In this document: piece after piece, positions 18,989 through 44,103 of the stretch | Numbering within the stretch: the first letter of the stretch is position 1 | Layout of the letters: every line of letters starts with the position of its first letter | NCBI GenBank assembly: GCA_964399265.1 | Contig: CAYNQF010000001.1 | Span: 1,195-65,194 of the forward strand | Length of the DNA stretch: 64,000 nucleotides | From: an uncultured bacterium | Lineage (GTDB): Bacteria > Joyebacterota > Joyebacteria > Joyebacterales > Joyebacteraceae | Direction: 5' to 3' | The notes under the pieces: model-generated | What the model saw: only the letters and a program-made list of their open reading frames with translations | Database searches by the model: none | What the model was told of the DNA's origin: nothing | Position numbers and translations under genes: made by a program

Positions 18989-19018
18989 GGCCAAGTATAC
19001 CCAGAACGGAGGTTGCGG

Positions 19019-19378
19019 ATGAACGAGGGGATAAGGCAGCGATACGAGGCCAGGGCCGGCGTCATGAAGGCGCTTGCGCACCCCAGCCGGCTCTACATCG
19101 TGGACGAGCTGTCGAGGGGCGAGAGGTGCGTCCACGAGCTTACCGACGCCATCGGCTCGGACATGTCGACCGTGTCAAAGCACCTGGGTGTCCTCAGGAC
19201 GGCCGGGATCGTGCGAGACGAGAAGCGCGGTTCGGAGGTCTACTACTCGCTCCGAATGGCATGCGTGCTCGACTTCTTCGGGTGTCTGGAGGCGGTCATG
19301 AACGGTGGCGATGCGGTGTCGTGCGCGTCTGCGGCGCGCGAGCCCGCGTCGACGCCACGGGCCGGGAGGACGACGTGA
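19019..19378 (+). CDS. ArsR/SmtB-family metalloregulatory transcriptional repressor
   Basis: wHTH signature HPSRLYIVDELSRGERCVHEL...VSKHLGVL. GGAGG RBS 9 nt upstream of ATG 19019. Stop overlaps the next start (TGATG). Confidence 0.85.
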   Translation: MNEGIRQRYEARAGVMKALAHPSRLYIVDELSRGERCVHELTDAIGSDMSTVSKHLGVLRTAGIVRDEKRGSEVYYSLRMACVLDFFGCLEAVMNGGDAVSCASAAREPASTPRAGRTT

Positions 19379-19860
19379 TGGCATTGACTTCGAGGCCCAC
19401 GCGGGGCGCGGCGACCGCGCTTGGTTTCGTCCTTGTCGCACTCGTCGCTCTGGCGCTGCTCGTGGGCTGCGGTGACACGGAGAAGGCGGCCGAGACCTCG
19501 GCCAGCGCCGGGTCCGGCGAGGCGCCCGGGCCGGCGAACGCCGGAAAGGCGTCCGAGTCGAATGCCGAGACGGCCGCGCTTCCGACGCTCCTCGACCTCG
19601 GGTCCGACAAGTGCGTTCCGTGCAAGGCAATGATGCCGATCATCGCGGAGATGCACGACACCTTCGCGGGGAAGCTGTCCGTGGAGTTCATCGACGTATG
19701 GAAGGACAGGGAGGCCGGGCAGAAGTACGGGGTGAAGGTGATCCCGACGCAAATCTTCCTCGACGCCGACGGGAACGAACTCTTCCGTCACCAGGGCTTC
19801 TTCTCGAGAGACGACATTCTGGCAAAGTGGCGGGAGCTGGGCTACGACTTCGGGCGGTAG
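19378..19860 (+). CDS. thioredoxin-fold lipoprotein (CVPC active site)
   Basis: Lipobox LLVGCGD. CVPCK CxxC motif with the cis-Pro motif VIPTQIF. GGGAGGA RBS. Confidence 0.7.
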   Translation: MALTSRPTRGAATALGFVLVALVALALLVGCGDTEKAAETSASAGSGEAPGPANAGKASESNAETAALPTLLDLGSDKCVPCKAMMPIIAEMHDTFAGKLSVEFIDVWKDREAGQKYGVKVIPTQIFLDADGNELFRHQGFFSRDDILAKWRELGYDFGR

Positions 19861-19884
19861 TCCGGCGGACGCCGGAGGTGAGAA

Positions 19885-20583
19885 GTGGTTGAGCTCTTCT
19901 CGACACTGAGCAGAGCCGTTGAGGGCGCTCCGGCAGTGGCGCTCGCGGCGTCGCTCGCGTGGGGCGTCCTGAGCGTCGTCCTGTCGCCCTGTCATCTCGC
20001 GAGCATCCCTCTCATCGTCGGGTTCATAGACGGGCAGGGGCGCATCTCGACGCGGAGGGCGTTTGGGATATCGCTTCTGTTCTCCGTCGGGATCCTGGCC
20101 ACCATCGCCGCGATCGGTGTGGCCACCGCCGTGGCCGGCAGAATGATCGGAGACCTAGGCCGCTGGGCCAACTACGGTGTAGCGATCATCTTCTTCGCCG
20201 TCGGACTGCACCTGCTCGGCCTTATCCCGATGCCGTGGTCGGGCCCCGGGCGTGTCGGCATGAGGCGGAGGGGTGCGCTCGCCGCCTTCGTGCTGGGGCT
20301 CGTGTTCGGCGTCGCCCTGGGGCCGTGCACGTTCGCATATATGGCTCCGATGCTGGCCGTTACCCTGCGGGTTGCTGCGACGAGTCTCGCCTACGGAGCG
20401 CTCTTGCTACTGGCGTACGGCGTCGGGCACTGCTCTGTCATCGTCCTGGCGGGCACGTTCACGGAGGTCGTGCAGAGATACCTGAACTGGACGGAGCGGT
20501 CCAGAGGCGCCGTCGTGCTCAGGAAGGTGTGCGGAGCGCTCGTGATGGTGGGCGGGGTATACCTTCTCATTACGGCGCACTAG
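19885..20583 (+). CDS. ccdA: CcdA/DsbD-like transmembrane thiol:disulfide electron-transfer protein
   Basis: Six TM segments with conserved Cys in TM1 (VVLSPCHLASIP). GTG start with a GGAGGTG RBS. Confidence 0.7.
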   Translation: MVELFSTLSRAVEGAPAVALAASLAWGVLSVVLSPCHLASIPLIVGFIDGQGRISTRRAFGISLLFSVGILATIAAIGVATAVAGRMIGDLGRWANYGVAIIFFAVGLHLLGLIPMPWSGPGRVGMRRRGALAAFVLGLVFGVALGPCTFAYMAPMLAVTLRVAATSLAYGALLLLAYGVGHCSVIVLAGTFTEVVQRYLNWTERSRGAVVLRKVCGALVMVGGVYLLITAH

Positions 20584-20593
20584 GGAGAGTCGC

Positions 20594-21892
20594 TTGAACT
20601 GGAAGATCGAGTGGAAGCCGCTCCTCATCATGCTCGCCGTCTTCCTGGCGGCGTTCAACCTGCCGGTCGGAACGGCGAGGTTCGACAATGCGCTCGTCGA
20701 GGCGTTCGCCCTCGTGAAGTGGTACGCGCGCGAGCACGTGGTCCTGTGTCTGCTGCCCGCCTTCCTCATAGCCGGGGCCATCGCCGCCTTCGTGCGCAAG
20801 GAATCGGTGATGAAGTACCTCGGCGCACGAGCGCCGAAGCCGCTCGCGTACGGTGTCGCCTCCGTATCCGGGTCGATCCTCGCTGTCTGTTCCTGCACTG
20901 TGCTGCCGCTCTTCGCGGGCATATACAGGATGGGGGCCGGCCTGGGACCGGCCAGCGCGTTCCTCTACTCGGGTCCCGCGATCAACGTGCTCGCCATCAT
21001 ACTGACGGCCCGCGTGCTCGGGCCCGAGCTGGGCCTCGCCAGGGCCCTGGGTGCGATCGGGTTCAGCGTGGTCATAGGACTTCTCATGCACGTCATCTTC
21101 CGTAAGGAGGAACTCGAGAAGGCCGACGCGCAGATGGCGATGCCGGAGCCCGAGCCCACGAGGCCGCTCTGGCAGAACGGCGTCTACTTCGCGATCATGG
21201 TGGCGATCCTCGTCTTCGCCAACTGGGGCAAGCCGTCGGCTCCGGACGGGCTCTGGGCCGCCGTCTATTCGGCCAAATGGGCTATTACCTCGCTTCTCGG
21301 CGTCGCGTTCGGCGTCGTCCTCATCCTGTGGTTCCGTTTGTCCGTGATGCGCGCGATGCTCGCGGCTCTGCCGCCCGTCGCGCTCGCGCTGCTGCTCCCG
21401 GGACAGCCGATCCTCGCCTTCGGCGCGGCCGTGGTCGGGCTCGGTGTCATCACCAGCACCGCCGGCGGAGAGATGGGCGAGTGGTTCGAATCGAGCTGGG
21501 GGTTCGCGAAGCAGATACTGCCGCTGCTCCTGATCGGCGTCATCGTGGCCGGACTGCTCCTGGGGAGGCCCGGACACCAGGGGCTGATTCCCTCCGAGTG
21601 GGTGGCGCGCTCGGTGGGCGGGAACTCGCTCGGCGCGAACCTCTTTGCATCGGTCGCGGGCGCGTTCATGTACTTCGCGACGCTCACTGAGGTGCCCATC
21701 CTGCAGGGGCTCATCGGCAGTGGCATGGGCAAGGGGCCGGCGCTGGCGTTACTGCTGGCGGGTCCGGCGCTGTCGCTTCCTAACATGCTCGTCATCAGAA
21801 GCATCATGGGAACTAAGAAGACGCTCGTGTTCGTAGGGTTGGTCGTCGCCATGGCCACGGTGACGGGGATGCTGTACGGCAGGTTCTTCTGA
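20594..21892 (+). CDS. permease of the UPF0718/DUF318 (YraQ-like) family
   Basis: Polytopic membrane protein with the paired-repeat architecture typical of DUF318. TTG start at 20594 after GGGAGAG. Commonly paired with the small thioredoxin-like protein that follows. Confidence 0.65.
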   Translation: MNWKIEWKPLLIMLAVFLAAFNLPVGTARFDNALVEAFALVKWYAREHVVLCLLPAFLIAGAIAAFVRKESVMKYLGARAPKPLAYGVASVSGSILAVCSCTVLPLFAGIYRMGAGLGPASAFLYSGPAINVLAIILTARVLGPELGLARALGAIGFSVVIGLLMHVIFRKEELEKADAQMAMPEPEPTRPLWQNGVYFAIMVAILVFANWGKPSAPDGLWAAVYSAKWAITSLLGVAFGVVLILWFRLSVMRAMLAALPPVALALLLPGQPILAFGAAVVGLGVITSTAGGEMGEWFESSWGFAKQILPLLLIGVIVAGLLLGRPGHQGLIPSEWVARSVGGNSLGANLFASVAGAFMYFATLTEVPILQGLIGSGMGKGPALALLLAGPALSLPNMLVIRSIMGTKKTLVFVGLVVAMATVTGMLYGRFF

Positions 21893-21903
21893 TGGAGGAA
21901 CAC

Positions 21904-22134
21904 ATGAAGGTTCAGATACTGGGTACCGGGTGCCCGAAGTGCAAGCAGCTCGAGGCGAACGCCCGCGCGGCGGTCGAAGAACTCGGCCTCGACTACGAGC
22001 TTGAGAAGGTCTCCGACATCAACGAGATCATGAAGTTCGGGATCATGATGACGCCCGGACTCGCCGTGGACGGTGTCGTGAAGTCGGCGGGGAAGCTCCT
22101 GTCGGTCGAGGATATCAAGAAGTTGCTCAAGTGA
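21904..22134 (+). CDS. small thioredoxin-like 'redox-active disulfide protein 2' family protein (CPKC)
   Basis: MKVQILGTGCPKCKQLE... is a textbook match to this ~77-aa family. GGAGGA RBS before ATG 21904. Confidence 0.8.
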   Translation: MKVQILGTGCPKCKQLEANARAAVEELGLDYELEKVSDINEIMKFGIMMTPGLAVDGVVKSAGKLLSVEDIKKLLK

Positions 22135-22153
22135 GGTTCGGGAGCGTGGAGGG

Positions 22154-22702
22154 ATGATGAGGTCGTTCCGTTACCTTGTGCTGACCGCCTCTCTGCTCAC
22201 CTGCTGTGCCGCGGTCGGTTTGGCCGACGAAGGAGTGTCCGCGCCCGCATCAGACACCGAGGCGGCGACGCATTCGCTGCCGGACTCGACCGGTGCGTCG
22301 CCGACCTCCGGCGCCGAGGCCGACTCCACGGCCCTCGACCGCGTCGTCGTTACCTATTTTCACAAAGAGTTCAGGTGCGAGATGTGCCTCGCGTTCGAGG
22401 CCAACTCGGAAGAGGCTCTTCGGACGGCGTTCCCGGGCGAGTTGGCGGACGGCCGTCTTGTCTGGCGCGTCCTGAACCTGGACGACAAGCAGAACACACA
22501 CTACGAGGACGACTACGGCCTGACGGAGCTCTCGCTCGTCGTGGCGGGGGAGCGCGACGGCGTCGTCGTGGAGTGGCGAACCCTCCCGGACATCTGGGGG
22601 CTCGTGGACGACAAGCAGGCGCTCATCGATTACGTTACGTACGAGGTGGGGAAGACGCTCGATAAGGTCAAGTACCGCGAATGGGCGGGAACCCGGAAGT
22701 AG
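22154..22702 (+). CDS. secreted hypothetical protein with CxxC motif (FRCEMC)
   Basis: Signal peptide. GGAGGG RBS. Last gene of the ArsR-family operon, immediately followed by a terminator. Confidence 0.5.
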   Translation: MMRSFRYLVLTASLLTCCAAVGLADEGVSAPASDTEAATHSLPDSTGASPTSGAEADSTALDRVVVTYFHKEFRCEMCLAFEANSEEALRTAFPGELADGRLVWRVLNLDDKQNTHYEDDYGLTELSLVVAGERDGVVVEWRTLPDIWGLVDDKQALIDYVTYEVGKTLDKVKYREWAGTRK

Positions 22703-22709
22703 CGGGAAA

Positions 22710-22740
22710 AGGGGCCTGGAACCGGCCCCTTTCTTTTTCT
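22710..22740 (+). terminator. rho-independent terminator AGGGGCC-TGGAACC-GGCCCCT followed by TTCTTTTTCT
   Basis: 7-bp stem, 7-nt loop and U-rich tail read from the sequence, 8 nt after the stop at 22702. Confidence 0.7.
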
Positions 22741-22741
22741 G

Positions 22742-22770
22742 TTGACGCCTGCACATACGTGCAGTAGCAT
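22742..22770 (+). promoter_or_regulatory. sigma70-like promoter TTGACG-17-TAGCAT upstream of lexA
   Basis: Near-consensus hexamers with exactly 17-bp spacing. Begins 2 nt after the upstream terminator. Confidence 0.5.
22750..22763 (+). promoter_or_regulatory. candidate LexA operator TGCAC-ATAC-GTGCA (Fibrobacter-type TGCNC-N4-GTGCA) inside the promoter spacer
   Basis: Exact match to the reported Fibrobacter succinogenes LexA box consensus. It lies between the -35 and -10 elements of the promoter preceding lexA. Confidence 0.5.
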
Positions 22771-23073
22771 GGTGCACAGATGGGCAGTAGGCGCCCGCGG
22801 CGGTTCGCGGCTCTCATGCATGAGCAGAAGGCCGCGCCGCCACTGCCCGTCGCTAAGCCATCAAGGCCGAGGTGTCAGGGCCGCGCGTTGGGCGGATAAC
22901 GTGGGAAATGGTCAGCTCGCGCGCCCGGTCCGGAACGAACGGGAATCCTGCGCGGCCCGCCTCGGCTTCTTTTTGAAAGGGGACCCGCGGCTGCGGTAGC
23001 GACGACATCGCGCGAGCATCATGCAGCTGCGGGCATTCTCTTGAACGGACGCATCCACCAGGAGCGAACCACA

Positions 23074-23706
23074 ATGACCATCCGGGACGATCTCTCGCAG
23101 GTTCAGAAGAAGATCCTCGAGTTCATCACCGAGAACATCCAGGACCACGACCGCTCGCCGACCATCCGCGAGATCGGGGAGGAGTTCGGCATCTCTTCGA
23201 CGAACGGCGTGCGCTACCACCTCAAGGTGCTCGAGGAGCGCGGGTATATAAAGAGGGAGCGCGGTATCTCGCGCGGCATCGAGTGGCGCGAGCATCACGT
23301 TCCGTCGCCCGCCCGTGCCAACGCGAGTGAGATACCGCTCGTGGGGCAGGTCGCGGCCGGCTCGCCCATCCTGGCGGTCGAGAACGTCGAAGGCGCGATG
23401 GCGGTCGACGAGATGTTCGGGACGAACGACGATTGCTTCGCGCTCCGCGTAAGCGGAGACAGTATGAAGAACGGCGGCATCTTCGACGGCGATATCGTCA
23501 TAGTGCAGCCGCAGCCAACCGCGAGGGCCGGCGATGTGGTCGTCGCACTAATAGATGAAGAGGCGACGGTCAAGACGTACACGCGATCGGAAGGCAAGGT
23601 CGTTCTCAGGGCCGAGAACCCGGACTACGACGACATCGTCCTGGACGCGCGCAGCGAGGACGCCAGGGTCTTGGGCAGAGTGGTCGGGCTAATGCGAAAG
23701 ATCTGA
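23074..23706 (+). CDS. lexA: LexA repressor (SOS regulator, S24 autopeptidase)
   Basis: N-terminal wHTH (LSQVQKKILEFI..RSPTIREIGEEFGISSTNGVRYHLKVLEERGYI). Cleavage-site AG in VAAGSP. Ser/Lys dyad in GDSMKNGGI ... KTY. GGAG RBS before ATG 23074. Confidence 0.9.
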   Translation: MTIRDDLSQVQKKILEFITENIQDHDRSPTIREIGEEFGISSTNGVRYHLKVLEERGYIKRERGISRGIEWREHHVPSPARANASEIPLVGQVAAGSPILAVENVEGAMAVDEMFGTNDDCFALRVSGDSMKNGGIFDGDIVIVQPQPTARAGDVVVALIDEEATVKTYTRSEGKVVLRAENPDYDDIVLDARSEDARVLGRVVGLMRKI

Positions 23707-23746: not shown

Positions 23747-24577
23747 ATGTACATTGCCGACGAAGCCAACACGAGAAGGAACGAGGCCGGCGCAAGTGCG
23801 GCCCGCCGGCGTTCCGGATCGCACGACTGGACCTCGGTGGCCGTGGCCATGCTCGCCACGTTCATCGTTATTGTCATGGCTCTGGGTGTTGCGGATGCTC
23901 GCGAGCCGGAGCGGGCCGATAGATCTGACACGGCGATAGAGAAGCTGTTCAAGGTCGACAGGCTTCACGAGGCTACGCGCGGGGAGATCGCGCTGCCGGA
24001 GCCGTCGCGCTCGGGCGGCCTCTCAGTCGAGGCGGCCATCGAGGGCAGACGATCGGTCCGGACGTTCACGGACGATCCCGTGACACTCGAGCAGCTCTCC
24101 CAGCTCCTGTGGGCCGCGCAGGGGATCACGGACAGGGATAGGTTCAGGCGCTCGGCCCCATCCGCCGGCGCCACGTATCCTATAGAGATATTCGTGGTGG
24201 CGGGGCGCATCGATGGACTCGAGCCCGGGGTCTATTGGTATGTGCCGTCGAGCCACACGATCAACCTGATCTCGGCCGGCGACCGGCGCCCGGAGCTCTC
24301 CGAGCAGGCTCTGTCCCAGTCGTCGGTGCTTAACGCGCCACTGTCGCTCGTCATAACCGGCGTCTACGAGCGGACTATGGAGAAGTACGAGGAGAGAGGT
24401 GTTCGTTACGTTCACATAGAGGTCGGAGCGGTCGCCGAGAACGTGTACCTGCAGGCGGAGAGCCTGGGACTGGGAACGGTCTTCGTGGGTTCGTTCTCGG
24501 ACGACGGCGTGCGCGACCTCCTTCACGCCGAGGTCTCTCCGCTCGGCATTATGCCTTTGGGGGTGCCCGCCAGATGA
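23747..24577 (+). CDS. membrane-anchored SagB-type dehydrogenase / nitroreductase-superfamily protein
   Basis: N-terminal TM helix followed by a nitroreductase-fold domain (RRSVRTF... / GAVAENVYLQAESLGLGTVFVG). Confidence 0.6.
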   Translation: MYIADEANTRRNEAGASAARRRSGSHDWTSVAVAMLATFIVIVMALGVADAREPERADRSDTAIEKLFKVDRLHEATRGEIALPEPSRSGGLSVEAAIEGRRSVRTFTDDPVTLEQLSQLLWAAQGITDRDRFRRSAPSAGATYPIEIFVVAGRIDGLEPGVYWYVPSSHTINLISAGDRRPELSEQALSQSSVLNAPLSLVITGVYERTMEKYEERGVRYVHIEVGAVAENVYLQAESLGLGTVFVGSFSDDGVRDLLHAEVSPLGIMPLGVPAR

Positions 24578-24924
24578 GACAGCGAACGACTCCGGGACAA
24601 CTCTGTAGAATTAAGGCTCCCAGACCAGGGGACGAGGAGCCGCGGGCCCGTGGTTACGACGTCGGTCCCGACGGGATGCTCAAGGACGTAGGAGAACCCG
24701 TGGCGGTCCTCGCCAGGTTCGGAAAGGGTCAGATCGACCCGCTCCGTTTCAAGTGGAACACCTGTGTTTACGACGTGGACCGCGTGAGCGGCAAGTGGGA
24801 GGAGCACGAGGGACAGTACAAGCTCTACTATTTCGGCGTCGTGACGAAGGCCGAGGATTACTACGAGCTCATCTACAGCACGAGGACGATGAGCTGGACG
24901 TTGTCCAGGACGGATAGCGATTGA
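24574..24924 (+). CDS. hypothetical small protein, translationally coupled (ATGA overlap) to the preceding gene
   Basis: The ATG at 24574 overlaps the TGA of the SagB-type gene. Coding-like composition; no recognised domain; the true start could be internal. Confidence 0.4.
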   Translation: MRQRTTPGQLCRIKAPRPGDEEPRARGYDVGPDGMLKDVGEPVAVLARFGKGQIDPLRFKWNTCVYDVDRVSGKWEEHEGQYKLYYFGVVTKAEDYYELIYSTRTMSWTLSRTDSD

Positions 24925-24940
24925 TGGTTGGAGGTGCGCC

Positions 24941-25432
24941 ATGAACGTCAGGATGCTGGCCCCGGACACAACGACCTGCTTCATGTACTACGAATCACCC
25001 ATCGGGCTCGTGGAGGTTGGCAGCACCGCGGGGGCCATCACATCGCTGTACTTCGTCGACGAGCGTCGTTCCGAGATGCTCAGGGACGAACTCGGCGAGG
25101 AGGCCGTGCGGCAGGTCGCCGAGTACTTTGAGGGCGGGCGCCGCGAGTTCGACGTTCCGGTGTCGCTAGGTGGAACGAAGTTCCAGAAGCTCGTCTGGAA
25201 CGAGCTTCTGAAGATATCGTTCGGCAACACCGTGTCGTACGGAGACATCGCCAAAGCGATAGGCAAGCCCACGGCGGTGCGCGCCGTCGGTGCTGCCAAC
25301 GGGCAGAACCCCATATCGATCATCATCCCGTGTCACCGCGTGATCGGGAACGACGGTCGCCTGACAGGTTACGGAGGGGGACTATGGCGGAAGCAGTGGC
25401 TTCTGAAGCACGAGGGCGGTCTGCTGCTCTGA
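24941..25432 (+). CDS. ogt: methylated-DNA--protein-cysteine methyltransferase
   Basis: Active-site PCHRV and helix-turn-helix NPISIIIPCHRVIG. GGAGGTG RBS. Confidence 0.85.
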   Translation: MNVRMLAPDTTTCFMYYESPIGLVEVGSTAGAITSLYFVDERRSEMLRDELGEEAVRQVAEYFEGGRREFDVPVSLGGTKFQKLVWNELLKISFGNTVSYGDIAKAIGKPTAVRAVGAANGQNPISIIIPCHRVIGNDGRLTGYGGGLWRKQWLLKHEGGLLL

Positions 25433-25443
25433 AGGAGAAGAAC

Positions 25444-26550
25444 GTGTCGGGCGACGGATCGAACGTCTACTGGAAGGAAGTCTACGACACGCTCGTAGCG
25501 AGCGTGCGTTTCAACGGCAAACACGGCGACATAGACGGCCATCTGTGCAGATTGTCGGAGTCGGTCGGTCCGCGCGCGCACGGCCACCCGTTCGTCCTCC
25601 ACAGGGGCGGGGGCGACATGGAGGTGTGCCTGCCGGTGACGGGGCCGCTCGACGACGACAGCAGCGGGGGACCCGCGCCTGGCGGGTCCCCCGAGATATC
25701 CTTCGGCACGCTCGGGGGCGCGGTCATGATGTGCGCTCCGTTCGAGGGCGACTTGGGTTCCGATGATACGGCGCGCTCGCTCGGGGAGGAGTTCGGAAGG
25801 CTCTGGCGTCACACGGTCGAGCATCACATCGGCGTCACCGAGGACCCCTGGCGCGAGGTCCTGCTCGATTACGAACCCGGCATTGCGGGCCTGTACAGGG
25901 CGGAGCTGCAGGTGCCGATGCTCCTTCCGAAATGGCTCGAGAGGCTCCGCGCCGGGCTCGACCGGTATGCCGGTGTGTCGGTGCGTCAGCACGTGCTGGG
26001 AGGAAGCGAGCGGCTCTACCCGTCTTCGAGTTCTTCCGAGAAGGTGACGTGGGTTAAGGGCGCGATGGCGCGCCTCGACGCGGCGGTCGAGGACGAGAAC
26101 AGGAGACGGGCCATCATGTGTGGATGTGCGCACGTCTATCCCGCCGCGCGCATCGCTGCGCTCAAGCGCGAGTACGAACGTCTCGGAAGCGTCGACGCAC
26201 TCCTCGAGTTCATCGCGAACGATCCGGGGTTCGACGTTGCGCCGTACTACCGCGACCCCGAGAGGTCCGGCAACGTCATCCTCATAGACAAGAACCCCCA
26301 GGAGCGTGAGAAGCACGCCGAAGCCACTGACCCATTCGTCAAACGCGCGGCGGCCTGCCACTGCCCGATCGTCAAGGCGGCCATACTCGCGGGCGAGAAC
26401 GTGTCGTTCACGTACTGCGGCTGCGGCACGGGATGGTTCAAGCCCGTGTGGGAAGCGATCCTGGAGGCGCCGGTCGACGTCATCTGCGAGGAGTCCGTCC
26501 TGCGAGGCGACGACCGCTGCAGGTTCGCCATCTACCTTCCGGAGGAATAG
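25444..26550 (+). CDS. hypothetical Cys-rich protein (motifs MCGCAH, CHCP, YCGCGTGW, RCRF in C-terminal half)
   Basis: GTG 25444 lies 11 nt after the ogt stop, preceded by AGGAGAAG. Stop is 1 nt before the fpg ATG. No family recognised. Confidence 0.5.
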   Translation: MSGDGSNVYWKEVYDTLVASVRFNGKHGDIDGHLCRLSESVGPRAHGHPFVLHRGGGDMEVCLPVTGPLDDDSSGGPAPGGSPEISFGTLGGAVMMCAPFEGDLGSDDTARSLGEEFGRLWRHTVEHHIGVTEDPWREVLLDYEPGIAGLYRAELQVPMLLPKWLERLRAGLDRYAGVSVRQHVLGGSERLYPSSSSSEKVTWVKGAMARLDAAVEDENRRRAIMCGCAHVYPAARIAALKREYERLGSVDALLEFIANDPGFDVAPYYRDPERSGNVILIDKNPQEREKHAEATDPFVKRAAACHCPIVKAAILAGENVSFTYCGCGTGWFKPVWEAILEAPVDVICEESVLRGDDRCRFAIYLPEE

Positions 26551-26551
26551 C

Positions 26552-27376
26552 ATGCCCGAGCTTCCAGAGGTCGCGTCGCGAGCTAAGGAGATGCAGAGGC
26601 TGCTCGTCGGGAAGACGATCCGCGACATCGAGCTCTTGCAGCCCAAGTGCCTGAACGTTCCGCCGGCCAGGTTCAAGAAGGCGCTCAGGGGCGCGGAGCT
26701 TCTGGGGACCTCGTACCACGGCAAGTGGCTCTTCACGGACACGACCAAGGGGCATCTGCTCATCAACCTGGGCATGGGTGGCGACATGCTGCTCGTGAAG
26801 GACGACGAGATTCCCGAGAAGCGTCAGGCCGTCTTCTACTTCGACGACGGGACCGCTCTCTCCATCCGGTTCTGGTGGTTCGGGTACGTTCACTACGCGG
26901 CCGAGGGCAAGCTCGGCTCGCACAAGATGAGCGGGAAGCTCGGTCCGAACGCGGTCGACGTCTCCAGAGACGAGTTCCGGGAGATGCTCCGCGGCAGGCG
27001 GGGCGCGGTGAAGACGTTCCTTCTCGACCAGGAGAAGATCGCCGGGATCGGCAACGCCTACGCGCACGACATCCTGTTCCTGGCGGGTCTCCATCCACAA
27101 CGAAAGCTCGACACGCTATCGGAGGACGAGGTCGACGGGCTGTGGCGGGGCATCCGCGACGGGCTCCTTCCGAGCCTCAAGAAGAGGGGCGCCTGGTACG
27201 AGCGGGACCTCAAGGGCAGACGCGGCGGATTCAAGATGGACGACATCCAGGTCGGCTACCTCGAGGGAGAGCCCTGCCCGACATGCGGCACGAAGATCGA
27301 GAAGCTCAAAACCGGAAGCACTTCTTCGTTCATCTGCCCGAAGTGCCAGGCGCTCAAGCCGAAGAAGAAGAGATGA
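26552..27376 (+). CDS. mutM: formamidopyrimidine-DNA glycosylase (Fpg/Nei family)
   Basis: N-terminal MPELPEV with catalytic Pro2/Glu3. H2TH region present. C-terminal zinc finger CPTCG...CPKCQ. GGAGGAA RBS. Confidence 0.85.
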   Translation: MPELPEVASRAKEMQRLLVGKTIRDIELLQPKCLNVPPARFKKALRGAELLGTSYHGKWLFTDTTKGHLLINLGMGGDMLLVKDDEIPEKRQAVFYFDDGTALSIRFWWFGYVHYAAEGKLGSHKMSGKLGPNAVDVSRDEFREMLRGRRGAVKTFLLDQEKIAGIGNAYAHDILFLAGLHPQRKLDTLSEDEVDGLWRGIRDGLLPSLKKRGAWYERDLKGRRGGFKMDDIQVGYLEGEPCPTCGTKIEKLKTGSTSSFICPKCQALKPKKKR

Positions 27377-27518
27377 GCCGCGACTCCGTAGACGTTCTGT
27401 TCGAGGACCCGCTCGCCGGGTCCCTCTGGAGCGCGGGGACAACGACGTTCTGGTCAGGCTGGAGGTGAAGGAGCCCCTCTTCGGGAGCGGCTTCTGGATG
27501 AGGCTGAGGTAGCGAACG

Positions 27519-28961
27519 ATGCTGGGACGACACCACAAGGAAGCGTCCGCGGGCGAGGTGCGCGACAGGCGCCTCGTCTTCCACGTCGACATGGACGCGT
27601 TCTTCGCGTCGGTCGAGGTGATGTGCCGACCGAAGCTGCGTGGCAAGCCGGTCATCGTCTGCGGCAAGCCGACGACTCGCAGCGTTGCGGCCGCGGCATC
27701 GTACGAGGCCCGGAAGTACGGCATCCGGTCCGGCATGTCGACCGTTGAGTGCTTCCGCCGCTGCCCCCACGTGGTAGCGGTCGAGGGCAATCCGGGGCAG
27801 TACATCTACGTTTCGCTCGAACTGCTGCGCATCTACAAGGAGTTCTCGACGATCGTCGAGCCCTACTCGATCGATGAGGCGTTCGTCGAGATGACCGGCA
27901 CGAAATGCAACTGGCAGAACTGCGAGGGCGTGGCTCTCGAGATCAAGGACAGGATAGGGAAGAGGTTCCCCGGACTTACGGCGACCATAGGCGTGGGCCC
28001 CAACAAGCTCGTGTCCAAGATGTGCGGCCACCTGAACAAGCCCGACGGCATAACGGTCATACGACCCGGCGGGTTCCTGGACGTGTTCGGCGAACGCAAC
28101 GTCACCGACATCTGGGGCGTAGGCGACAGAACGGCCCTCGCTCTTTCTATGATGGGCATGGACAACATTCGCGAGCTGTCGGAGCACCCGGTCTCGATGC
28201 TGCGTCGTCGCTTCGGCATCATGGGAGAGATCCTTCACATGATGGCCGTCGGTCGCGACGACACGCCCGTCGTGCCGTACTTCGAGGGCATGCCGGTCAA
28301 ATCGATGGGTCACGAACATACGCTCCCGGCTGACACGTGGGACATCGCCGAGGCGGAGAAGGTGTTGCTGCGTCTGTGCGACCAGGTTGCGCGACGGATG
28401 CGGAAGAAGGGATACCTGGGCGACGTCATCTCGATGCGTCTTAGGTTCAGCGACTTCGAGAGCATAGGCAGGCAGAAGAAGCTCAAGTTCTACACGGACG
28501 AGGAGCGCGTCATATACAAGGAAGCGCGCGAGCTTCTGCACAGGCACTGGAGGCCGGGACACTCGATCAGGCTGGTGGGCGTGAACTGCTCGGGTCTGGT
28601 GAAGGTGCCCGAGACGGTGCAGGTCGACCTCTTCCGTCAGAAGGAGGAGGACTCACACAGGAAGCTTCTGGCGGCCGTCGACGCGATCAGGGACAAGTTC
28701 GGCGAGAACGCCATAACGAGGGCGCGACTCGTCGACATCAATCGCAGGATGTGGGACGCCGGCCGCCGCGTCTCGGAGCCCAGGTTCCAGAAGATGTCGG
28801 TCGGAACGAGCGAGCGCCAGTACCACTCGATCATGGCCGGGTTCCACGACAACAAGGCGAACGTGGATACCGTACCGCTTCCACCCGGTCTTTCGTCGAG
28901 TCCGTTCGACATGCTGCGCCACCAGGACGCCGAGGATCTGAGCCGCGGAGGCATCGACTAG
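27519..28961 (+). CDS. dinB: Y-family DNA polymerase IV with ~100-aa C-terminal extension
   Basis: HVDMDAFFASVE catalytic motif. Little-finger region present. 480 aa, longer than typical DinB. Confidence 0.85.
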   Translation: MLGRHHKEASAGEVRDRRLVFHVDMDAFFASVEVMCRPKLRGKPVIVCGKPTTRSVAAAASYEARKYGIRSGMSTVECFRRCPHVVAVEGNPGQYIYVSLELLRIYKEFSTIVEPYSIDEAFVEMTGTKCNWQNCEGVALEIKDRIGKRFPGLTATIGVGPNKLVSKMCGHLNKPDGITVIRPGGFLDVFGERNVTDIWGVGDRTALALSMMGMDNIRELSEHPVSMLRRRFGIMGEILHMMAVGRDDTPVVPYFEGMPVKSMGHEHTLPADTWDIAEAEKVLLRLCDQVARRMRKKGYLGDVISMRLRFSDFESIGRQKKLKFYTDEERVIYKEARELLHRHWRPGHSIRLVGVNCSGLVKVPETVQVDLFRQKEEDSHRKLLAAVDAIRDKFGENAITRARLVDINRRMWDAGRRVSEPRFQKMSVGTSERQYHSIMAGFHDNKANVDTVPLPPGLSSSPFDMLRHQDAEDLSRGGID

Positions 28962-29014
28962 CGGCAGGCTCAGATGACACGAGCGTTCAGACCCGAGAGG
29001 CGTCAAACGGAGTG

Positions 29015-29941
29015 ATGGTGATAGACCTCCAGGATAAGCAGGGCGACCTCTTCCCCGAGATGCCACACGCGGGAGAGCATCAGATCGCCGACACGAACGG
29101 GGCGTACGACAGCAGCCCGGTCCCTCCCAACGTGCACCGTCTGGGGCGCCACGGCCGCATACGCGTCGGTACGTCCGGCTACAGCTTCGCCGACTGGATC
29201 GGCCCGTTCTATCCCCAGGGCACGCCCCGCAGCAAGATGCTCGACGAGTACGTCCGTCACTTCGACGTGGTCGAGATCAACTCGAGCTATTACCGGCTCC
29301 CGGACGCCAGGATGTTCGAGAGGATGGAAGAGAAGACACCGGACGGGTTCGAGTTCATCGTCAAGCTCTACAAGGGGATGACACACGAGATCGAGAGCGA
29401 CACGTCGATGTACCGTTCTCTGTCCGACGCGATCGCACCGCTTCGCGAGGCGCAGAAGTTCGGCGGGTATCTGGCGCAGTTTCCCTGGAAGTTCAAGAAC
29501 ACGCCGGAGGCGCAGGCCCACCTCGGCTTCCTGAGGGAGCACCTCGGTGGCGACTCGCTGTTCGTCGAGTTCAGGCACGACTCGTGGATGACGCCTGAGG
29601 TGTTCGAGTTCCTGCACTCCGAGGGGCTGGGGTACTGCTCGGTCGACGAGCCGAACCTGAAGGGCCTCATTCCCCCCGTGGCCCGCGCCACGACCGAGGA
29701 GGGTTACGTGCGGTTTCACGGTCGCAACTCCGTGAACTGGTGGGGGAAAGGCGGCGGAGACCGCTACGACTACGATTACAGCGACAGCGAACTCGGCGAG
29801 TGGGCGAAGAAGCTCGTCACCCTTGAGGACAAGGTCAAGAAGGTCTACGCTTTCTTCAACAACTGCCACGCGGGTCACGCCGCCAGGAACGCCGAGCTGA
29901 TGATCGAGATGCTCGGCAGCGAGCTGGGCGATCGGTGCTGA
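29015..29941 (+). CDS. DUF72 (YecE-like) family protein
   Basis: VGTSGYSFADW...FYP N-terminal signature. ATG 29015 after a GGAG-like RBS; the long upstream extension of the ORF is discounted. Confidence 0.75.
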   Translation: MVIDLQDKQGDLFPEMPHAGEHQIADTNGAYDSSPVPPNVHRLGRHGRIRVGTSGYSFADWIGPFYPQGTPRSKMLDEYVRHFDVVEINSSYYRLPDARMFERMEEKTPDGFEFIVKLYKGMTHEIESDTSMYRSLSDAIAPLREAQKFGGYLAQFPWKFKNTPEAQAHLGFLREHLGGDSLFVEFRHDSWMTPEVFEFLHSEGLGYCSVDEPNLKGLIPPVARATTEEGYVRFHGRNSVNWWGKGGGDRYDYDYSDSELGEWAKKLVTLEDKVKKVYAFFNNCHAGHAARNAELMIEMLGSELGDRC

Positions 29942-30014
29942 CGACCGCGCGCCACCGGAGAGCGCCGCCGGCGCCCTACGAATCCATGACGTTCGGGAGA
30001 CCGGGAGACCGCTG

Positions 30015-30404
30015 ATGGACCGGACGCGTCCTGATATGCTCGGATATTGCGGCATCTACTGCGGGCGGTGCGACATCCACGTCGCGTGCAAGACCGGAGA
30101 CACGGCCGGCCAGCAGGCGATCGCCGACTGGATAAACGAGCATCACGGTGCCAAATGCACGGCGGAGGAAATACGATGCAGCGGGTGCAAGGGGCCACTG
30201 GACGAACACTGGAGCGTGAGCTGCAAGGTCCGGTTGTGTGCCTCCGAGAGGGGCGTAACCACCTGCGTCGACTGCGGCGAGTATCCGGGTTGCGACACGC
30301 TCGAGACCTTCTACCGTGGAGGAGACTACGAGTCGGCCCGGAAGACCCTGGAGAGGATTCGGGAGATCGGATTGAACGCCTGGCTCGAGGAACAGGAGGG
30401 GTGA
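30015..30404 (+). CDS. DUF3795 Cys-rich domain protein
   Basis: CGIYCGRCDIH ... CSGCKG ... CVDCGEYPGC pattern. Confidence 0.75.
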   Translation: MDRTRPDMLGYCGIYCGRCDIHVACKTGDTAGQQAIADWINEHHGAKCTAEEIRCSGCKGPLDEHWSVSCKVRLCASERGVTTCVDCGEYPGCDTLETFYRGGDYESARKTLERIREIGLNAWLEEQEG

Positions 30405-30408
30405 CGAG

Positions 30409-31146
30409 GTGAACAGACGCCACCACATCGCGACGGCCATGGTGATGCTCGCGTCCCTCATGCTGCTCACGTGTATCACCGCGGAAGCGGACGACCAGAC
30501 GTCGAAGGGCCGCCCGGTCGTGCCGGGCTCCGTGCTCGACGCCCCTCCGGAGCATCCGTCGCCCGACGCTCACTATCTCATCTATCTGCACGGAGCCATA
30601 CTCGAGAGCGAGGGCCCCGACGCGGTGCACCCGCGCTTCGGCAGATACGAGTACTCGGCGATACTGGACTCGTTGGCCGTCAGGGGGCTCGTCGTCATAA
30701 GCCAACTGAGGGCGCAGGGCGCCGATCCGATCGATTACTCCAAGAGCACGGCGGAGTGGGTTAACACGATGATCCGCGAAGGTGTCCCGCCTGAGCACAT
30801 CACGGTCGCCGGTTTCTCGAAGGGCGGCGGCATAGCGATGGACATCTGCCGGCGCCTGTCCAACCCCGGCGTCAACTACGTCTTCATGGCGTGCTGTCCA
30901 AGGGCGATGCAGGACTGGCCCGAGGCCGACTACCGCGGGCGCATTCTCTCGATCTACGAAAAGAGCGACGATTTCGCCGGTTCCTGCCGAGAGGCCATTC
31001 TCGGCTCTGCCGACGCGCCGACTCCCGAGGGCATCGTGTTCAAGGAGATCGAGATAGACACCGGGCTCGAGCACGGCGCGTTCTACCGACCACGGCCCGT
31101 GTGGGTCGACCCGGTGGTCGGTTGGGCGATGTCGTCTCCCGAGTAG
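30409..31146 (+). CDS. secreted/membrane-anchored alpha/beta-hydrolase-like protein
   Basis: N-terminal hydrophobic segment. GFSKGG nucleophile elbow. GTG start 4 nt after the preceding stop, with a GGAGGGG RBS. Confidence 0.5.
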   Translation: MNRRHHIATAMVMLASLMLLTCITAEADDQTSKGRPVVPGSVLDAPPEHPSPDAHYLIYLHGAILESEGPDAVHPRFGRYEYSAILDSLAVRGLVVISQLRAQGADPIDYSKSTAEWVNTMIREGVPPEHITVAGFSKGGGIAMDICRRLSNPGVNYVFMACCPRAMQDWPEADYRGRILSIYEKSDDFAGSCREAILGSADAPTPEGIVFKEIEIDTGLEHGAFYRPRPVWVDPVVGWAMSSPE

Positions 31147-31151
31147 CGCTT

Positions 31152-33467
31152 ATGACCATCACCGATTTCCTCCAGAAGATACGGCACGACGGTTACTACG
31201 CCGGGCAGATCGCCCACGTGGAGACCGTTCCCTCCCGGGAGGCCGAGTACGGCGACCTCTCCGAGCCGCTCCCGGGACCGCTCGCCCGGGCGCTCGAGGC
31301 CGCCGGGATAGAGAGACTCTACTCCCATCAGGTGGACGCCATCGAGGCGGTCCGGCGGGGCAGGAACGTGGTCGTGGTGACCGGGACCGCTTCGGGGAAG
31401 ACGCTCTGCTACAACGTCCCCGTGCTCGAGCGTCTGCTCGCGAAGCCCTCGGCAAAGGCTCTCTACCTGTTCCCGACCAAGGCCCTGGCGCAGGATCAGG
31501 TCAAGTCGCTCACGAGGCTGGCCGGACTGGACACTGAGCTCATGGAGGTCGTCCGGACCGGCACGTACGACGGGGACACGACCCGCCACACGAGACGCAA
31601 GCTCCGCGACGAGGGGAACGTCATCCTCTCGAACCCGGACATGCTCCACGCCGGGATACTCCCATATCACGCCAAGTGGAACAGGTTCCTGAAGGACCTC
31701 GAGTACGTCGTCGTCGACGAGATACACACGTACCGCGGCATCTTCGGGTCGAACGTCGCGAACGTCCTCCGGAGGCTCAGGCGCGTGTGCGAGCACTACG
31801 GTTCGCACCCGCAGTTCATATGCTCGAGCGCGACGATCGCGAACCCGCGGGAGCTTGCGGAACGGCTGGTGGGTGAGCCGTTCGAGGTCGTAGACCGCGA
31901 CGGGAGCCCGCGTGGGACGAAGCACTTCGTGCTCTGGAACCCGCCGTACCTCGACGATACCAAAATGGAACGCAGAAGCTCCAACGTCGAGGGGCACTGG
32001 CTCATGTCCGAGCTGATCGCCGAGGGGTTCCAGACGATCGCCTTCGGCAGGGCTCGGGTCGTCGCGGAACTCATCTATCGCTACGCGAAGGACTCCCTGC
32101 GGAGACGGAAGCCCGAGTACGCGGAGAAGATCAAACCCTACAGGGGCGGCTACCTGCCCGAGGAACGGCGCGAGATCGAGAGGCAGCTCTTCTCGGGCGA
32201 ACTCATGGGGGTCGCCAGCACGAACGCCCTCGAGCTTGGCATCGACGTGGGTAGTCTGGACGCGGCGGTCATAGTCGGGTTTCCCGGCACGATAGCGAGC
32301 GTCTGGCAGCAGGCCGGACGGGCGGGACGCGCTTCCGACGAGTCGCTCGCGGTCCTGGTCGGATACAATGACCCCATCGACCAGTACCTCATGCGGCACG
32401 GGCGGTATTTCTTTATGCAGTCCCCCGAGAACGCGGTCATCGACCCCGGCAACAAGTATATTCTCGCGAACCACCTTCGCTGCGCGGCGTTCGAGCTTCC
32501 GCTCTCCGAGATGGACTACGACCTGTTCGGAGAGCTGGCGGAGCCGATCATTGACGTGCTCGACGAGGTGGAGGACCTGAACGAGATAGACGGGCGCCAC
32601 TACTGGGCGTCGACCGACTTCCCGGCGAGGGCGATGAACCTCAGGACCATCTCGGACAACACGTACACTATCGTAGACGTCGCTCGCGACAACGCGGTGA
32701 TCGGTGTGGTCGACGGTGTGTCCGCGCTCGAGCTGGTCTATCCGGAGGCCATCTACCTGCATGAGGGCGAGACCTACTTCGTCCGCGACCTCGACCTCGA
32801 GCAGAAGGTGGCCTACGTGGAGAAGAAGGAGGTCGACTACTACACCCAGCCGGTGTTGGAGTCGGCCATCCGGATCGGTGAGGCGACGGACTCCAGGGTG
32901 TGGAACGGGAACAACGTGTTCTTCGGCGACGCCACCGTCACCTGGGTGACGTCTGCGTTCAAGAAGATCAAGTTCTACCAGCTCGACTCCATCGGATGGT
33001 CGAATCTCGACCTGCCGCCGTTCCACCTGGAGACCAAGTCGCTCTGGGTGTCTCCCTCGAAAGAGGCGATGGACGCGGTCCGCTCCCAGGGACGCAATCC
33101 CGTCGAGGGACTGGTCGGAGTGCGCAACGTTGCGATATCGGTCCTGCCTCTCTTCTCGATGAGCGACCGCAGGGACGTGGGCGGTATCGTCGAGAGCGGC
33201 AACACCGGGAGCCCCACGATGTTCCTATACGACAGGTTCGAGGGCGGGCTCGGGTTCGTCGAGACGGGCTACCGCAACATCGGCGAGCTCCTGCGGGGGT
33301 GTCTCGACCTGGTCGAGGAGTGCGACTGCGAAGATGGATGTCCCTCGTGCGTCGGCCTGCCCATACTGAGGCCGCCCATTCAGCAGGACCCCGATGCGGG
33401 CGGCGCCTGGCCGATCCCGGACAAGGAGTCCGCGCGGCTGCTCCTCAGAGCGATGCTCGCGGCCTGA
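31152..33467 (+). CDS. mrfA: MrfA/YprA-like DEXH-box helicase with C-terminal DUF1998 zinc-Cys4 domain
   Basis: Walker A GTASGKT. DEIH box (VVDEIHTY). C-terminal CDCEDGCPSCVGLP. ATG lies 5 nt after the upstream stop. Confidence 0.8.
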   Translation: MTITDFLQKIRHDGYYAGQIAHVETVPSREAEYGDLSEPLPGPLARALEAAGIERLYSHQVDAIEAVRRGRNVVVVTGTASGKTLCYNVPVLERLLAKPSAKALYLFPTKALAQDQVKSLTRLAGLDTELMEVVRTGTYDGDTTRHTRRKLRDEGNVILSNPDMLHAGILPYHAKWNRFLKDLEYVVVDEIHTYRGIFGSNVANVLRRLRRVCEHYGSHPQFICSSATIANPRELAERLVGEPFEVVDRDGSPRGTKHFVLWNPPYLDDTKMERRSSNVEGHWLMSELIAEGFQTIAFGRARVVAELIYRYAKDSLRRRKPEYAEKIKPYRGGYLPEERREIERQLFSGELMGVASTNALELGIDVGSLDAAVIVGFPGTIASVWQQAGRAGRASDESLAVLVGYNDPIDQYLMRHGRYFFMQSPENAVIDPGNKYILANHLRCAAFELPLSEMDYDLFGELAEPIIDVLDEVEDLNEIDGRHYWASTDFPARAMNLRTISDNTYTIVDVARDNAVIGVVDGVSALELVYPEAIYLHEGETYFVRDLDLEQKVAYVEKKEVDYYTQPVLESAIRIGEATDSRVWNGNNVFFGDATVTWVTSAFKKIKFYQLDSIGWSNLDLPPFHLETKSLWVSPSKEAMDAVRSQGRNPVEGLVGVRNVAISVLPLFSMSDRRDVGGIVESGNTGSPTMFLYDRFEGGLGFVETGYRNIGELLRGCLDLVEECDCEDGCPSCVGLPILRPPIQQDPDAGGAWPIPDKESARLLLRAMLAA

Positions 33468-43260: not shown

Positions 43261-44103
43261 ATGAGGTCCACGTTCTTCTGTCATGTCTTCGCGGCGGCCA
43301 TGATCCTGGCGGCCACCGCCTCGGCCGCCCCCATAGTCGGCGCCAGCGCCAACACGCTTCCGGCGGGCCAGTTCATGATAGACGGGTGGTTCACCTGGCG
43401 GGACTACACATGTATGTACGAGGACAGCTCGGAGACCTGGTACACGTTGTCGTCGGAGCGGACGATCACCTCCGGCACGCTCATGCCGAGGGTGTGCTAC
43501 GGCTTGACCGACTGGGTCTCCCTTCGCGCGGGCGTTTCCATAGAGGACAGATACCGGGAGTTCAAGGACTTCGACGAGACCCGGTCGAGCACAGGCGTCG
43601 GTGACTTCGTTTTCGACCCAAAGATCAAGGTCTACCAGGGCGAGGAGGGATACCCACGCGCCTCGCTCATCGTCGGCGTGCGCATCCCCACGGGCGACAC
43701 CGAGGCCGACGTCCCGCTTTCGGACGGATCGACCGACTACGTCGCCGGGGCCGCTCTCACTCACAAGGCCGGAGACGTGACGACGCACGTCTGTCTCACG
43801 TACTGGCTGAACGGAGAGGGCGACGATGGAGCCGACGTCAAGGACGTGTGGGTCGGGAGCCTGTCGCTCGAGACCACGATAGACGAGAGTTGGTCAATGC
43901 TGTGGGAGGCGAAGGCGTACGCCGGGTCGGAGGATTCCGACTACCGGCGTCTCTACGCGTGCCCAGGTATCTCCTGGAACGGAGAGCACGCGACGGTGGG
44001 CCTGTCGGCCATGATATCGGCCTACCGCAAGGGCGACCCCGCGGTCAGCGCGTCCGATTTCGACTGGGCGCCGTACGTCCGCTACTACTACCGCTTCTTC
44101 TAG
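43261..44103 (+). CDS. putative outer-membrane beta-barrel protein
   Basis: Signal peptide, alternating amphipathic strands and C-terminal YYYRFF. GGAGGTG RBS. Confidence 0.5.
   Translation: MRSTFFCHVFAAAMILAATASAAPIVGASANTLPAGQFMIDGWFTWRDYTCMYEDSSETWYTLSSERTITSGTLMPRVCYGLTDWVSLRAGVSIEDRYREFKDFDETRSSTGVGDFVFDPKIKVYQGEEGYPRASLIVGVRIPTGDTEADVPLSDGSTDYVAGAALTHKAGDVTTHVCLTYWLNGEGDDGADVKDVWVGSLSLETTIDESWSMLWEAKAYAGSEDSDYRRLYACPGISWNGEHATVGLSAMISAYRKGDPAVSASDFDWAPYVRYYYRFF

Follow-up and report, generated by a model that had tools for sequence, protein, structure and literature searches.

A predicted LexA-controlled promoter with two operators and a conserved RNA element in the long lexA leader of an Eisenbacteria-type bacterium

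INTRODUCTION

How is the SOS repressor gene lexA controlled in an uncultured bacterium of the Eisenbacteria type, and what lies in the roughly 300 nt that separate its promoter from its start codon? These questions are raised by a 64,000-nt stretch of DNA (positions 1,195 to 65,194 of contig CAYNQF010000001.1), called here the window, in which lexA is preceded by a promoter whose spacer holds an inverted repeat. A preliminary description of the site had read this repeat as a LexA box matching TGCNC-N4-GTGCA, the motif reportedly assigned to Fibrobacter succinogenes LexA by Mazon et al. in 2004. In this work, we have compared the locus with 184 fetched loci (L001–L184, ~1.45 Mb in total), among which L001–L009, L081–L088 and L161–L184 are the Eisenbacteria lexA loci; a box scan covered 115 kb of Eisenbacteria loci. 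Taken as a whole, the locus is likely to be the autoregulated SOS promoter of an Eisenbacteria-type bacterium, in front of a repair operon and with a cis-acting leader RNA.

RESULTS

The lexA promoter carries two predicted LexA operators

Both the sequence and a consensus scan bear out the TTGACG-17 bp-TAGCAT promoter proposed for positions 22742-22770 (features are listed in Table 1). The scan calls a promoter with 9 of the 12 hexamer positions matched, 5/6 in the -35 and 4/6 in the -10, a score for which the term near-consensus was somewhat generous. The hexamers and a spacing within the 16–18 nt range, as expected of a sigma-70-type promoter, are present and kept in the orthologues, and transcription is predicted to start near 22777. 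TTGAC is unvarying across ~70 lexA loci, and TAnnnT is found at equal spacing in the relatives. The consensus scan found no further promoter-like site between 22771 and 23073, and in three relatives (L083, L166 and L168) the equivalent promoter lies 36–61 nt from the lexA ATG (counted from the ATG within box 2, described below); we therefore take it to be the lexA promoter.

The inverted repeat TGCAC-ATAC-GTGCA of the spacer is perfect, as had been claimed, lies at 22750-22763 and extends to a 16-bp palindrome (box 1). Its match to TGCNC-N4-GTGCA is exact, and holds on both strands. The single repeat of the preliminary description is real, and a second one had been overlooked: at 22773-22786, TGCAC-AGAT-GGGCA (box 2) matches the motif exactly on the minus strand, its centre 23 bp from that of box 1, which makes two predicted operators. 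The 64 kb contain three exact matches at two sites, where 0.6 are expected, and 3 of 100 shuffles reach three matches; both sites are those of this promoter. A weight matrix made from the lexA boxes of the relatives and the window's own two sites gives box 1 25.1 bits and box 2 20.6 bits, while the best score in the shuffled 64 kb has a mean of 12.4 and a peak of 20.4 bits and all other sites of the window stay at or below 11.2 bits.

As far as sequence can tell, the strongest argument against chance is the conservation of the boxes in relatives. Every Eisenbacteria-type lexA locus recovered with upstream sequence, except L009, keeps both boxes, both hexamers and the 23-bp spacing, in the shared layout cTTGAC-N3-TGCAC-N4-GTGCA-G-TAnnnT-NG-TGCAC-N4-G(T/G)GCA, and about half of the Eisenbacteria loci with box 2 have the perfect TGCAC-AGAT-GTGCA. 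Sites of at least 14 bits in the 115 kb of Eisenbacteria loci are all in lexA promoters; neither there nor in the window did the matrix find a site beyond the lexA promoter. About 70 of 160 more distant lexA loci (LexA identity 45–52%) carry one box at the same position of the spacer of a TTGAC/TAnnnT promoter, among them loci of Fibrobacter (TGCCCAGTTGTGCA), Latescibacterota and others. The Fibrobacter loci read TTGACAAT-TGCCCAGTTGTGCA-TTATATT, and loci with TGCCCAGTTGTGCA encode a LexA 87–95% identical to proteins named Fibrobacter LexA by NCBI. Intermediate boxes, TGAAC-N4-GTGCA and TGTAC-N4-GAGCA, occupy the same promoter position. In two soil relatives (L151 and L157) the promoter-plus-box module lies ~70 nt upstream of dinB, so that in this LexA clade the motif appears to serve more than lexA alone.

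Could the palindrome have arisen by chance, or does it serve a regulator different from LexA? Such an explanation would agree with the motif showing no enrichment in the window once one mismatch is tolerated (10 matches against 16.4 expected). Against it, the position of the box is kept in ~70 lexA loci of several phyla and the box recurs in dinB promoters; it also agrees with the LexA box reportedly defined by experiment in Fibrobacter, whose loci carry it at the same position. We judge this explanation very unlikely. Because the boxes are conserved across the lexA promoters of relatives and the dinB promoters of L151 and L157, the operator reading is well supported: the TTGACG/TAGCAT promoter carries, with high probability, predicted LexA operators of the Fibrobacter type.

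Two further candidate sites in the window were rejected. The matrix site at 43404 (11.2 bits) lies within a coding region and scores at chance level. A 'third box' at 23022-23035, with one mismatch, forms the 3΄ arm of a covarying hairpin (see below); the box is not preserved in L002, L081, L161 and L163, is missing in the relatives without that hairpin and ranks outside the top 30 matrix sites.

In L009 (1441-1500), a 45-nt deletion relative to L008 removes box 2 and the 5΄ hairpin of the leader, and box 1 and the RNA element described below stay; either natural variation or an error of assembly could account for this. The distant loci L089–L160 show, at one fixed promoter position, a series of left half-sites (TGAAC, TGTAC, TGCAC, TGCCC) and of right half-sites (GTGCA, GGGCA, GAGCA, GTTCA) through which the recognition-helix segment of LexA is constant, a natural series for the study of LexA motif drift. 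Finally, the soil relative L145 has a perfect TGCACATGCGTGCA at 2015-2028, 27 nt upstream of an unannotated open reading frame (ORF) just after lexA, which may be a further member of the regulon.

Upstream, a terminator directly before the site, also part of the preliminary description, was recovered by the terminator scan. The upstream gene orf182 ends at 22702 and is followed by a hairpin at 22708-22732 (9 pairs, 6 of them G-C), the tail of which, CTTTTTCTGT, abuts the -35 hexamer. The T-rich part of this tail (22733-22741) is kept in L001, L166 and L171, where the hairpin is missing; the tract may therefore, besides serving as terminator tail, be a part of the promoter resembling an UP element.

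The downstream gene encodes a complete LexA of Eisenbacteria type

The lexA gene announced downstream of the site encodes a complete LexA by Pfam and by alignment, with both domains and with the Ala-Gly cleavage site (A95-G96) and the Ser/Lys dyad (S130, K167) unvarying. Its ATG at 23074 lies 303 nt after the -10 hexamer. This exact LexA sequence is not on record; it is 93–63% identical to LexA of Candidatus Eisenbacteria genome bins, and the DinB of the window is 90% identical to its closest relative, again in Eisenbacteria genome bins. Identity with Fibrobacter LexA is ~49%, with an identical ISSTNGVR segment in the recognition helix; in the form I(S/A/T)STNGVR this segment is common to the window, Fibrobacter and four other relatives. 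The site had been seen as SOS autoregulation of the Fibrobacteres-Chlorobi-Bacteroidetes (FCB) lineage. Autoregulation of the lexA promoter is supported by the sequence, whereas the lineage label needs rewording: NCBI taxonomy files Eiseniibacteriota under candidate phyla and not in the FCB group, so 'FCB-lineage' rests on the similarity of LexA.

The lexA leader contains a conserved structured RNA element

In this clade the lexA leader mostly measures 30–70 nt, and leaders of 178–347 nt occur in Eisenbacteria only. The long leader of ~300 nt noticed at the outset is real, with the 303 nt given above, and it folds more stably than all 200 shuffled versions (z = -2.9). The fold consists of four domains, namely a 5΄ stem-loop, a large domain (22864-22968), a second hairpin and a small stem close to the ribosome-binding site. 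Relatives, too, have a comparable hairpin at the 5΄ end, with varying sequence.

The large domain corresponds to an element of ~100 nt that we aligned across 16 distinct leader sequences, a 17th being added later. In the proposed structure 96.7% of the cells are paired, against 38–47% when the 3΄ partners are slid. The pairs 5-108, 6-107, 10-103 and 30-68 covary, each with three pair types (AU, GU and GC), and a bulge, GGU-N-UC at 22871-76, is unvarying. A covariance model scores the sense strand at 77–105 bits and the antisense strand at 20 bits or less, a strand specificity due to the many G-U pairs. No locus has more than one match, and every match is located between the SOS promoter and lexA. 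Since neither the window nor the 184 loci contain a second copy, we rejected the idea of a repeated or mobile element. A known RNA family was rejected as well: none of the 4227 families of Rfam 15 matches the window at the gathering threshold, and a relaxed Rfam search with the leaders of the window, L005 and L171 returned noise only (E above 0.3). Inspection by eye for a pseudoknot (AAAUGGUCAG against the 5΄ flank CCAUCA/CCACCA, and GGGA against UCC) found no consistent covariation.

The element is as conserved as the first and second codon positions of LexA: between window and relatives, 78–89% of its nucleotides are identical, compared with 75–84% at first plus second and 50–62% at third codon positions. 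Our results show that it has the structure of a cis-regulatory leader, at moderate support and low diversity. That the domain is a real, selected structure seems to us very likely; a regulatory role in response to a ligand or protein is possible, and we put this forward tentatively. We found no literature on an RNA motif associated with lexA, and no bacterium is known to us in which a conserved structured RNA has been described in front of lexA; as far as can be told, this leader RNA is undescribed. Among the Eisenbacteria, 12 of the 16 loci with the element have ogt in their lexA cluster and none of the six without it do, a co-occurrence which may reflect shared ancestry or hint at the signal of the RNA.

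Another way to explain the leader would be that it is translated, as a peptide or as an N-terminal extension of LexA from the ATG in box 2. In L005, L087 and L175 this ATG is in frame with lexA with no stop between, and some gene callers extend LexA to 228–297 aa. The frame differs among relatives, though, with stops in the window, L001, L002, L006, L007, L081, L161, L163 and L171; the lengths of the indels are not multiples of three, four sequences have ACG or TCG in place of the ATG of the conserved loop, and no conserved ORF runs through the leader among the relatives compared. A coding leader is extremely unlikely.

The region downstream of the element varies between subclades

P1 and P2 together form 17 mostly G-C pairs followed by UUCUUUUU, in an arrangement like that of a terminator or attenuator whose stem encloses a domain of ~60 nt. 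The simple terminator scan makes no call at the U-run, because the enclosed domain is too large for a loop. The window, L001, L002, L081, L161 and L163 retain a U-rich tract, which is lacking in L164, L082, L171, L184 and the L005 clade. The second leader hairpin has covarying arms (GGCTGC/GCAGCT in the window, GGCCGT/ACGGCC in L163); it is an insertion relative to L001, and is missing both there and in the L005 clade, in both of which the element borders directly on the ribosome-binding site of lexA. The ribosome-binding sites have predicted accessibilities between 0.15 and 0.72 that follow no pattern.

These data bear on two alternatives to a regulatory leader. The main product of the promoter could be a damage-induced small RNA of ~195 nt, made of the 5΄ hairpin and the domain and ending at 22967-22974, that acts in trans, lexA being expressed by read-through only. 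The long GC-rich P1/P2 followed by UUCUUUUU does look like the 3΄ terminus of a small RNA with intrinsic termination, and the U-rich tract stays across the window subclade while its flanks diverge. Most carriers of the element, on the other hand, lack the U-run (L005 clade, L164, L082, L171, L184), the element lies directly against the ribosome-binding site in the L005 clade and L001, no copy of it was found away from lexA in the window or the fetched loci, and the consensus scan found no separate lexA promoter after the U-run. We regard a trans-acting small RNA as unlikely. Rather unlikely, too, is a purely structural element without ligand or partner, be it a fold that stabilises the mRNA, a fixed partial terminator or a spacer by which basal lexA expression is tuned. 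The very stable helices and the unvarying P2 agree with such a role, as do the absence of a conserved expression platform and the fact that several relatives dispense with the element. It accords poorly with the unpaired GGU-N-UC and with GGAAAUGGUCAGCUCG (22904-19), which remain unvarying at ~65% LexA identity, and with a nucleotide identity far above that of the third codon positions of LexA; a simple stabilising hairpin needs no such conservation.

The promoter probably drives a repair operon

Ten tightly spaced genes follow lexA on the same strand, and their order is kept in relatives: nitroreductase, a DUF6504-like small ORF, ogt, a DUF6144-like gene, fpg/nei, dinB, DUF72, DUF3795, alpha/beta-hydrolase and a MrfA-like helicase. 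Neither the weight matrix nor the terminator scan revealed a further box or a sense-strand terminator inside the cluster, and no conserved promoter was found there. Judged from this gene arrangement, the promoter probably drives an 11-gene repair operon (lexA plus ten) that ends at 33467. In all Eisenbacteria loci examined dinB is within the lexA operon, and both look-ups of an Eisenbacteria dinB away from lexA with a box of its own fell inside lexA operons.

Some members and neighbours of the cluster deserve description. Directly after lexA and the nitroreductase gene comes the small ORF (24574-24924, its true start probably at 24676). Its own match to DUF6504 (PF20114) is weak; the homologue in L184 scores above the Pfam cutoff. 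A homologue adjoins lexA in 34 of 160 lexA loci of several phyla, so the protein may be an uncharacterised SOS component. The last gene (31149-33467) encodes a DEAD-box helicase with a MrfA zinc-binding (MZB) domain and an HRQ1 winged helix, which resembles the mitomycin-repair helicase MrfA. The DUF72, DUF3795 and alpha/beta-hydrolase genes precede the helicase gene in the same order in L179 and L182. Upstream of the promoter, on the strand of lexA, lies a cluster (19013-22702) of arsR-like, thioredoxin-like, CcdA-like, ArsP-type permease and Thioredoxin_3 genes and an unannotated ORF of 182 aa; it is syntenic with lexA in L004, L005, L164, L166 and L184.

Table 1. Coordinates of the features at the lexA locus of the window
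Feature	Position	Strand	Basis or remark
Terminator hairpin of upstream gene orf182 and T-rich tract abutting the -35	22708..22741	+	Scan
-35 hexamer TTGACG	22742..22747	+	Sequence and consensus scan
17-nt promoter spacer	22748-22764	+	Sequence
Predicted LexA box 1, 16-bp perfect palindrome CTGCAC-ATAC-GTGCAG	22749..22764	.	Core 22750-22763; fills the promoter spacer
-10 hexamer TAGCAT	22765..22770	+	Consensus scan
Predicted LexA box 2, GTGCAC-AGAT-GGGCAG	22772..22787	.	Core 22773-22786; over the predicted start near 22777
5΄ stem-loop of leader RNA	22779..22851	+	Minimum-free-energy fold; 5΄ arm includes right half of box 2
Structured RNA element of lexA leader	22865..22967	+	Alignments, covariance model
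P1	22865-72 with 22960-67	+	Helix of the leader RNA element
P2	22878-86 with 22950-58	+	Helix of the leader RNA element
P3	22887-94 with 22922-29	+	Helix of the leader RNA element
P3b	22901-05 with 22916-20	+	Helix of the leader RNA element
Unvarying 10-nt loop AAAUGGUCAG	22906-15	+	Leader RNA element
Variable or missing hairpin between P3 and the 3΄ strand of P2	~22930-22945	+	Leader RNA element
U-run (TTCTTTTT) directly after P1	22967..22974	+	Sequence; terminator- or attenuator-like arrangement
Second leader hairpin	22977..23042	+	3΄ arm 23022-23035, TGCAGCTGCGGGCA
Ribosome-binding site AGGAG	23060..23064	+	9 nt before the ATG
lexA, 210 aa	23074..23706	+	Pfam LexA_DNA_bind 2e-18, Peptidase_S24 5e-34
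Ten same-strand genes with tight spacing after lexA	23747..33467	+	Pfam; gene order kept in relatives

DISCUSSION

We propose that LexA dimers on both boxes would exclude RNA polymerase from the promoter, and that upon DNA damage the RecA-stimulated self-cleavage of LexA would free it, a step that we infer because the cleavage site and the catalytic residues are intact. The transcript would then run from near 22777 through lexA and the ten following genes to 33467, with ogt, fpg/nei, dinB and the MrfA-like helicase among its products. In this scheme the leader domain (22865-22967) would be a cis-acting regulatory RNA, riboswitch-like or protein-binding, that sets the share of the SOS transcript which reaches or translates lexA and the operon; in the subclade of the window it may do so by attenuating transcription at the U-run. 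In combining a conserved core with a variable downstream part, the leader is reminiscent of an aptamer whose expression platforms can be exchanged.

Several points weigh against this proposal and have to be set beside it. On the DNA side there are the -10 hexamer, with only 4/6 positions of the consensus, the lack of enrichment of the motif at one mismatch given above, and the absence of recA, uvrA, uvrB, ruvB and uvrD signatures from the window and the Eisenbacteria loci. On the RNA side the diversity is low: P2 never varies and is uninformative, changes on both sides are seen in two pairs only, and most variation is from G-C or A-U to G-U. The element is missing in L004, L083–L086, L166 and L168, all of which retain both operators; lexA control can therefore do without the element, which would be an accessory layer of it. 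No expression platform is conserved, the U-run being present in one subclade only and the distance from the element to the ribosome-binding site varying from ~8 to more than 100 nt. Moreover, efficient termination at the U-run would make lexA depend on read-through, as there is no downstream promoter and as an attenuator implies.

What could the leader respond to? Some leader riboswitches are reported to sense products of purine damage such as 8-oxoguanine. A damaged or alkylated base or nucleotide is a candidate input here, one that is loosely fitted by the content of the operon (ogt, fpg/nei, nitroreductase, dinB) and by the distribution of ogt (12/16 vs 0/6). It is quite doubtful, in our view, that the domain represents a new riboswitch or protein-sensing class giving the SOS operon a second input independent of RecA. 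Like riboswitches, the leader has a strand-specific structured domain in which unpaired nucleotides are unvarying and a peripheral hairpin varies, followed by a region that varies as well, and, in one subclade, a closing helix and U-run that may form a terminator. It differs from them in matching no Rfam family, in lacking a conserved expression platform and in being confined to one gene and to part of one candidate phylum.

The operator belongs to the Fibrobacter-type family of LexA boxes, and the leader RNA is the more novel part of the locus. With the Fibrobacter box the window shares the 14-bp dyad, the 4-nt spacer, the half-site and the location within the spacer of the lexA promoter. Its left half-site, in contrast, is the fully symmetric TGCAC; a second box lies over the predicted start at a fixed 23 bp; and the leader measures 303 nt, compared with ~57 nt in Fibrobacter. 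In E. coli, the lexA promoter has two tandem SOS boxes of the CTGT-N8-ACAG type. The window is predicted to follow the same principle, with two neighbouring operators across the lexA promoter by which the repressor controls its own gene. E. coli differs in its motif and has no structured leader, and its lexA does not head a long repair operon. The dyad of the Gram-positive SOS (Cheo) box, GAAC-N4-GTTC, is built in the same way, with 4 nt between the halves; its half-site is GAAC instead of TGCAC.

We found no literature on the SOS response of Eisenbacteria. In the FCB-related regulons of Balneolaeota (PMC7739468) and Bacteroidetes (PMC8565304), LexA controls itself and a translesion polymerase, as appears to be the case here, and the Balneolaeota regulon also includes a helicase (PMC7739468). 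The SOS motifs of both groups (PMC7739468, PMC8565304) differ from the box of the window, where, unlike there, many repair genes appear fused into one operon under a single operator pair.

What do these results mean for the SOS response of this lineage? They provide a usable LexA motif for Eisenbacteria, TGCAC-N4-G(T/G)GCA within a TTGAC-N3-box-N-TAnnnT promoter. The promoter-embedded box is common to Eisenbacteria, Fibrobacter, Latescibacterota and others, and half-sites of intermediate sequence link it to the Gram-positive GAAC box; the shared box and its intermediates bear on how LexA motifs drift in evolution. The SOS genes seen in this lineage form one long operon behind a single pair of predicted operators, an unusual layout for a regulon. 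If the leader RNA senses a signal, the SOS output would be gated after the start of transcription as well as by the cleavage of LexA. In the subclade of the window, passage of the derepressed transcript beyond the U-run, into lexA and the repair genes, would then be under the control of the RNA.

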